Below are positions 4,466-4,565 of a stretch of DNA of 48,307 nt, piece by piece. Both the position numbers and the translations under genes were made by a program. The stretch's first letter is position 1. Each line of letters opens with the position of its first letter. This DNA is from Escherichia coli (GTDB lineage: Bacteria; Pseudomonadota; Gammaproteobacteria; Enterobacterales; Enterobacteriaceae): assembly GCF_003334385.1 (NCBI RefSeq), contig NZ_QOWN01000033.1; one strand, 5' to 3'. Under the pieces are notes generated by a model, which worked only from the letters and a program-made list of their open reading frames with translations, did not search any database and was not told the DNA's origin.

Positions 4466-4525
4466 GAGCTGACCCCTTGGTTACGAATACAGAGTACAAA
4501 CCCCGTACAAAAGTACGGGGCATAA

Positions 4526-4565
4526 TGCAATTATAGATGGGGGGGATTTTGAGGGTTTCAACCCC
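4526..4565 (-). promoter_or_regulatory. Sigma-32 (heat-shock) promoter of hslVU
   Basis: Minus strand reads GTTGAAACCCTCAAAATCCCCCCCATCTATAAT, matching the sigma-32 consensus (-35 TTGAAA, -10 CCCCATnT); a 5'UTR hairpin follows at 4501-4520. The -35 overlaps the ftsN stop codon. Confidence 0.6.

Follow-up and report, generated by a model that had tools for sequence, protein, structure and literature searches.

We conclude with high confidence that the site upstream of hslV in this stretch of Escherichia coli DNA is the classical sigma-32 (RpoH) heat-shock promoter of hslVU (clpQY), packed so tightly against the end of ftsN that three bases (TGA) are common to the ftsN stop codon and the -35 hexamer TTGAAA. 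Chuang and co-workers reportedly described this sigma-32 promoter of hslVU in E. coli K-12 in 1993. The window (the whole stretch of DNA analysed here, 48,307 nucleotides) is E. coli chromosome, and adding 4117822 to a window position gives the NC_000913.3 (MG1655) coordinate. Around the site, 301 bases match K-12 MG1655 without a difference (100% identity). The region is present in 5,426 of 5,426 complete E. coli genomes, and in 4,290 of these at an identity of at least 99%.

The genes at the locus lie on the minus strand in the order cytR, ftsN, hslV, hslU, menA, rraA, and those closest to the site are as follows.

5609-6640, minus strand: cytR (ORF list and MG1655 annotation)
4558-5517, minus strand: ftsN, encoding a SPOR-domain cell-division protein of 319 aa (ORF list; MG1655 b3933; PF05036 homologues named FtsN)
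3935-4465, minus strand: hslV, with a GTG start at 4465-4463 (ORF list; MG1655 b3932)
2594-3925, minus strand: hslU (ORF list; MG1655 b3931)

The operon driven by the promoter consists of hslV and hslU (2594-4465, minus strand), and the spacer between ftsN and hslV measures 92 nt. FtsN itself varies in length: named cluster representatives from E. coli and Shigella are 270 to 349 aa long, with 83-99% identity (the protein here is encoded by window 4561-5517), a spread that points to frequent insertions and deletions in the Q/P-rich linker.

Read on the minus strand, ftsN ends in ...GGG GGT TGA, with the stop codon TGA at 4560-4558, and the stretch runs ...GCC GCC GGG GGT TGA AAC CCT CAA AAT CCC CCC CAT CTA TAA TTG CAT TAT G CCCCGTAC TTTT GTACGGGG TTTGTACT... 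Two promoter elements can be delimited in it.

4561-4556, minus strand: -35 hexamer TTGAAA, an exact match to the sigma-32 -35 (GTTGAAA at 4562-4556; from the sequence)
4542-4534, minus strand: -10 element CCCCATCTA (from the sequence, pattern statistics and the published clpQ-m1 mutant, PMC2681174)

The second element agrees with the sigma-32 -10 pattern CCCCATnT and follows TTGAAA after 13 nt (13-14 nt, according to the limits set for the -10). The spacing of the same promoter has elsewhere been counted as 14, the commonest value in the Nonaka set (PMC10044804). A search of both strands of the 48-kb window for TTGAAA-N12-16-CCCCAT returned this one match, against 0.03 expected from shuffled sequences. 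Genetic evidence was provided by Lien et al. (2009; PMC2681174), who found that clpQ::lacZ fusions and the native mRNA are heat-induced, that expression and heat induction are reduced in rpoH mutants, not in rpoS mutants, and that a C-to-T change in the -10 sequence CCCCATCT (clpQ-m1) lowers expression and abolishes heat induction. The preliminary description of this DNA had proposed a sigma-32 promoter whose -35 element overlaps the ftsN stop codon at 4558-4560. All of its coordinates prove correct when read on the minus strand, and the assignment to sigma-32 is borne out both by the geometry of the elements and by the rpoH and -10 mutant genetics (PMC2681174). In Lien et al. (2009; PMC2681174), ftsN is mentioned nowhere.

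Literature and sequence together show that sigma-32 holoenzyme uses TTGAAA/CCCCATCTA and that hslVU transcripts start near 4526. Published 5' ends bear directly on this, and the leader that they define matches a known RNA family.

4526, minus strand: hslVU transcription start site, an A (SMRT-Cappable-seq, MG1655 4122348)
4463-4520, minus strand: match to Rfam RF02401 ClpQY_promoter, model positions 1-57 of 57 (cmscan, 63.6 bits, E = 2e-13; gathering score 42 bits)

SMRT-Cappable-seq recorded the unit b3932|b3931 at 4120362-4122348, reverse strand, in both growth conditions (Yan et al., 2018; PMC6131387). Mapped onto the window, this published capped 5' end falls 7 nt after CCCCATCTA, at 4526, so that hslVU transcription does initiate at the proposed promoter and not elsewhere. 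The leader is then 61 nt long, with the hairpin described below at +7 to +26. Lien et al. (PMC2681174) had placed the start 71 nt upstream of the GTG codon, equivalent to window 4536 and inside their own -10 box. The two starts lie 10 nt apart, and the difference between a 71-nt and a 61-nt leader involves no difference in sequence. In our view the capped-read position agrees better with the geometry of the promoter.

The RF02401 match spans the hairpin, a conserved linker, the Shine-Dalgarno sequence AAGGGG (4478-4473) and the GTG start of hslV. Despite its name, the model covers the transcribed leader only, and the promoter hexamers lie outside it. We also considered the leader as an RNA thermometer and dropped this reading: in the minimum-energy leader fold, ACUCU (~4492-4496) pairs weakly with GGGG of the Shine-Dalgarno sequence, through only 4 pairs. 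No thermosensitive segment was reported by Lien et al. (PMC2681174).

The leader's first structured element is a GC-rich hairpin.

4520-4501, minus strand: leader hairpin CCCCGTAC-TTTT-GTACGGGG, then TTTGTACT (from the sequence, the fold and published mutants)

Its stem is a perfect 8 bp, 6 of them G-C, closed by a 4-nt loop, and a ninth pair (G-U, 4521/4500) is possible. The 22-nt hairpin folds at -16.5 kcal/mol (z = -5.97), a value equalled in 0 of 200 shuffles, and it is the sole stable hairpin in the 92-nt spacer. The claim of a GC hairpin at 4501-4520 in the hslV 5' UTR was confirmed in its coordinates and its fold, and the hairpin falls within the 5' UTR from either published start site. 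Deletion of 40 bp of the leader, or removal or disruption of the inverted repeat, gave less mRNA and protein and a shorter mRNA life after rifampicin, and a stem rebuilt with different sequence restored them (delta-IR, S-IR and R-IR constructs; PMC2681174). No RNase E or RNase III motif was obvious to the authors of that study (PMC2681174). Comparison of 37 distinct Enterobacteriaceae leaders points the same way, with 96.1% of cells paired. Two pairs are changed on both sides (10 cells), and the observed covariation score was reached in 0 of 500 shuffles. The five outer pairs of the nine are invariant in this Enterobacteriaceae sample, and the inner pairs vary, through an AU-to-GC exchange in 7 sequences and CG/UG/UA variation. 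The comparative support for the hairpin is moderate and its covariation modest, and the published compensatory mutants outweigh both.

As a 5'-terminal stem-loop, the hairpin probably counters 5'-end-dependent decay. Lien et al. (PMC2681174) compared it with the leader stabilisers of ompA and papA, which likewise carry a stable hairpin a few nt from the 5' end and confer a longer mRNA life. As in stabilisers of the ompA/papA type, it is the structure that matters and not the sequence. The hslVU hairpin differs from them in that it is also transcribed in the 3' region of upstream ftsN transcripts.

Because zero bases separate the stop codon from the promoter, a polymerase that completes ftsN must cross the -35 element. 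In the preliminary description, transcription of ftsN was held to pass through the promoter of the downstream protease operon. This is supported, with the refinement that not all transcripts read through. Full-length SMRT-Cappable-seq reads define ftsN-hslV-hslU, cytR-ftsN and hslV-hslU-menA-rraA units, and the region is displayed in a supplementary figure of that study (PMC6131387). Some ftsN transcripts extend into hslV-hslU and others stop after ftsN; read-through is partial because the cytR-ftsN unit has ftsN as its last gene. The transcripts that do continue would provide a small, sigma-32-independent supply of hslVU mRNA. The published reporter fusions contained 141 or 478 bp of upstream DNA and were without the ftsN promoter (PMC2681174).

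Transcript 3' ends were sought in the curated Term-seq data of Adams et al. (2021; PMC7815308), which hold neither a minus-strand 3' end nor a Rho-dependent region in the ftsN-hslV spacer under three growth conditions, although ftsN is weakly expressed and such absence is not proof. The ROSE supplement contains no entry for the locus. The Term-seq data do include a plus-strand, antisense 3' end at MG1655 4122347, equivalent to window 4525 (PMC7815308). This end lies 5 nt past the hairpin in the plus-strand sense and 1 nt from the start site at 4122348, and could come from an antisense transcript that was trimmed back to the hairpin or blocked by promoter-bound polymerase.

We then examined how far the arrangement is conserved. 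An exact-pattern scan with the conserved Shine-Dalgarno region, using one genome per species, recovered 49 loci, all from Enterobacteriaceae. A single regular expression caught the whole arrangement in 44 of these loci and in the window, with a -35/-10 spacer of 13 nt in 43 sequences and 14 nt in 2. The exceptions were L030 and L050 (sequence end), L024 (homopolymer anomalies), and L025 and L027 (insertions). The TGA of TTGAAA terminates, in frame, a full-length FtsN with the end ...CIRL-x-x-G, and GGGGTTGAAACCC is invariant in 46 of 46 Enterobacteriaceae genomes. Third positions are invariant in the last two ftsN codons of these 46 genomes; over the last 30 codons, the mean major-allele frequency at third positions is 0.74 and 3 of the 30 are invariant. 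Invariant third positions at the end of ftsN are the signature of bases with two functions. The overlap would persist through this dual constraint, because the shared bases serve both functions and their separation would need their duplication.

Two of the Enterobacteriaceae loci depart from the pattern at homopolymers. L022, the milder case, has an extra G in the G run before TTGAAA, which shifts the ftsN frame, and L024 has TTGGAAA together with extra C residues. Both look like homopolymer assembly errors rather than real variants. Two others, L027 (4368-4492; Citrobacter amalonaticus S646) and L025 (~1171-1480; Intestinirhabdus alba), carry a repeat element directly after CCCCATCTATAG, between the -10 and the hairpin, and retain both the stop/-35 overlap and, ahead of the insertion, the -10. 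Both inserts start with ACAAAATCATTC. The 125-bp insert of L027 contains GTGAATCCCCAGGAGC...GTGACTGGGGTG and matches an unannotated multi-copy repeat of E. coli found at a median of 8 places per genome with ~83% identity. We take this repeat, with its GTGAATCCCCAGGAGC...GTGACTGGGGTG, to be ERIC/IRU. In these two loci the start of heat-shock transcripts would fall within the repeat, and the hairpin would have lost its 5'-terminal position.

A homologue search with FtsN listed at least 120 proteins, and those listed came from Escherichia, Citrobacter and Salmonella alone. For lineages beyond the Enterobacteriaceae, distant FtsN representatives (33-57% identity to E. coli) were traced to their contigs, which gave eight loci: Pantoea agglomerans, Musicola paradisiaca, a Rahnella/Hafnia-like genome, Plesiomonas shigelloides and four further lineages. 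P0214, P0243 and P0261 (25-33% identical to FtsN), which hslV does not follow, were taken for other SPOR proteins or rearranged loci and excluded, and P0157, with no contig on record, was left out. In 8 of 8 loci ftsN ends in GGT TGA A (GGTTGAAA) with an in-frame stop, and a CAYNT core follows 16-17 nt later, again in all eight. The stop/-35 overlap is kept in 54 of 54 informative genomes, down to 33% FtsN identity, and therefore spans at least the order Enterobacterales. The sequence at L060 (2031-2216) encodes an FtsN that is 35% identical; its end, GGTTGAAA, is followed by TCCCATCTA, and the next ORF (42 aa, at the contig end) is not hslV.

The hairpin follows the -10 core at a distance of 12-14 nt in 6 of the 8 lineages compared (named cases are Pantoea, Musicola, L053, Plesiomonas and L061), including those with a hairpin of different sequence. 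The fixed distance fits a predicted role at the very 5' end of the RNA. Hairpin sequences of the distant lineages are unrelated: among these lineages RF02401 matches Pantoea alone; it also matches the two insertion-bearing Enterobacteriaceae loci, and gives no match to the equivalent hairpins of Plesiomonas, L053, L059 and L061. The bases after the stem differ as well. A U-rich tail follows the hairpin in L053 (TTTTTTTC), Plesiomonas L054 (ATTTTCTA) and L061 (TTGTTTTA); the eight bases in this position are TTTGTACT in E. coli and are C- or G-rich in Citrobacter, Salmonella, Klebsiella, Raoultella and Kosakonia. L059 (~2105-2150; Enterobacterales) has a ~19-bp tandem duplication (TATAGCTTCAATTTCATT twice) directly after the -10, which leaves its hairpin 46 nt from the -10 core. 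Taken with the repeat insertions, this duplication indicates that the segment just after the -10 tolerates insertions and that the stop/-35 junction does not.

These comparisons bear on what the hairpin is for. It could serve mainly, or also, as an intrinsic terminator or 3'-end protector of ftsN that happens to lie downstream of the hslVU start, the promoter being nested between stop codon and terminator. Polymerases arriving from ftsN would then mostly stop at ~4495-4500, and those starting at 4526 would pass, either as the signal is weak or as they are only 7-35 nt from their start. Some features recall intrinsic terminators: a GC-rich stem of 8-9 bp, the only stable one in the spacer, has a 4-nt loop and is followed by TTT, TTTGTACT having three leading T and 5 T in 8. 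A cytR-ftsN unit with ftsN as last gene exists, the equivalent hairpins of L053, Plesiomonas and L061 are followed by the clear U runs given above, and the plus-strand Term-seq end 5 nt past the hairpin suggests that it is able to define a 3' end in vivo. Yet the T tract of E. coli is short and broken up, and most Enterobacteriaceae lack it, with C or G instead of T after the hairpin in Klebsiella, Raoultella, Citrobacter, Salmonella and Kosakonia, and the curated Term-seq set, over its three conditions, has no minus-strand 3' end or Rho-dependent region between ftsN and hslV. Read-through transcripts covering ftsN-hslV-hslU exist, and the constant distance to the -10 is needed for a role at the 5' end, not for a terminator. 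A consensus terminator scan did not call the 4501-4520 hairpin either, a miss that we attribute to the G-T extension at 4521/4500 and to only 4 T in the 8-nt tail window. We consider a main or additional terminator role for ftsN rather unlikely. In some lineages, hairpin and U tail together do resemble a canonical intrinsic terminator, which may serve ftsN, or may once have served it. From this one can sketch a two-way hairpin, a weak terminator or 3' protector for ftsN and a 5' protector for sigma-32 transcripts, in which overlap and hairpin would be ancient in Enterobacterales and the U tail of Plesiomonas, L053 and L061 ancestral and eroded in Enterobacteriaceae; we offer it tentatively and rate it a little lower again.

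Other doubts concern the promoter and the overlap themselves. A perfect TATAAT at 4535-4530 (minus strand) overlaps the end of the sigma-32 -10, and sigma-70 or sigma-S might be the main user of the site, with the sigma-32 motif secondary. Residual basal expression in rpoH mutants (PMC2681174) and a weak peak (3.6) in the hslV-ftsN spacer in genomic SELEX with RpoS holoenzyme are consistent with some such use, and TATAAT may account for both. As a main promoter, however, it is poorly placed: the start at 4526 is only 3 nt after TATAAT, TTGAAA lies 20 bp upstream of it, no usable -35 is present, and a sigma-70 consensus scan found no site in 3800-5700. Neither an rpoS mutation nor mutation of the putative RpoS -10 had an effect, and both expression and its induction by heat rely on rpoH as well as on the CCCCATCT box (PMC2681174). 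These genetics largely refute the sigma-70/sigma-S reading, which we hold to be highly improbable. The last alternative accepts the sigma-32 promoter and denies the overlap any regulatory meaning, seeing in it genome compaction, with read-through from ftsN as negligible noise. In its favour, ftsN is weakly expressed, fusions without the ftsN promoter reproduce the native regulation of the operon, and northern blots of rpoH mutants reveal little hslVU mRNA (PMC2681174). Against this, the overlap is kept throughout the 54 informative genomes while insertions and duplications recur just downstream of the -10, and full-length ftsN-hslV-hslU transcripts are numerous enough for an operon-variant call. 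Conservation of the overlap could, for its part, follow from the difficulty of separating shared bases alone. An overlap of no regulatory consequence is, in our judgement, possible but doubtful, and the strongest of the alternatives considered here.

With a sigma-32 promoter of hslVU abutting ftsN as the preferred reading, the locus can be compared with an established case. The heat-shock promoter Phs of rpoD is a sigma-32 promoter inside the coding region of dnaG, in the rpsU-dnaG-rpoD operon, and gives rpoD both a constitutive and a heat-induced supply. The likeness lies in a sigma-32 promoter embedded in the end of the upstream gene and passed by upstream transcription. The two differ in that Phs is wholly coding and part of a recognised operon, whereas in hslVU only the -35 overlaps the stop codon, and ftsN and hslVU are usually annotated as separate units. 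The site itself is the same locus as the published hslVU (clpQY, htpI/htpO) promoter of E. coli K-12, with identical -35, -10, start codon and inverted repeat (PMC2681174). All of the essential parts described here are therefore already known: promoter, sigma-32 dependence, stabilising hairpin and ftsN-hslVU read-through have all been published, and the leader is an Rfam family. Our additions are minor, namely the order-wide conservation of the overlap, the -10-to-hairpin distance and the lineage-specific U tail.

The locus is nonetheless a textbook example of dual-use bases, with a stop codon that doubles as part of a -35 hexamer, and this matters in practice. If the 3' end of ftsN is recoded or tagged, or its TGA replaced, the hslVU heat-shock promoter will be damaged, and an ftsN deletion that extends up to the stop codon can alter hslVU expression. 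For work on operon boundaries, the order-wide overlap and a possible second function of the hairpin are also of interest.

One further feature lies within the promoter, at the edge of its -10 element.

4539-4545, minus strand: seven consecutive C straddling the boundary of spacer and -10, a slippage hot spot (from the sequence and published mutations)

In the heat-adaptation experiments concerned, loss of function of hslVU was the commonest mutation class (PMC7750951, PMC10044804). Two heat-rescue populations had fixed a 1-bp deletion at -74/+19, which that study places 3' of the operon (PMC7750951); from the distances given, we assign it to the C7 run. A 2-bp deletion from the same run occurred in the heat-evolved strain BM28 (PMC10044804). 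The C7 run thus presents itself as a slippage-prone switch that is struck repeatedly during adaptation to heat.
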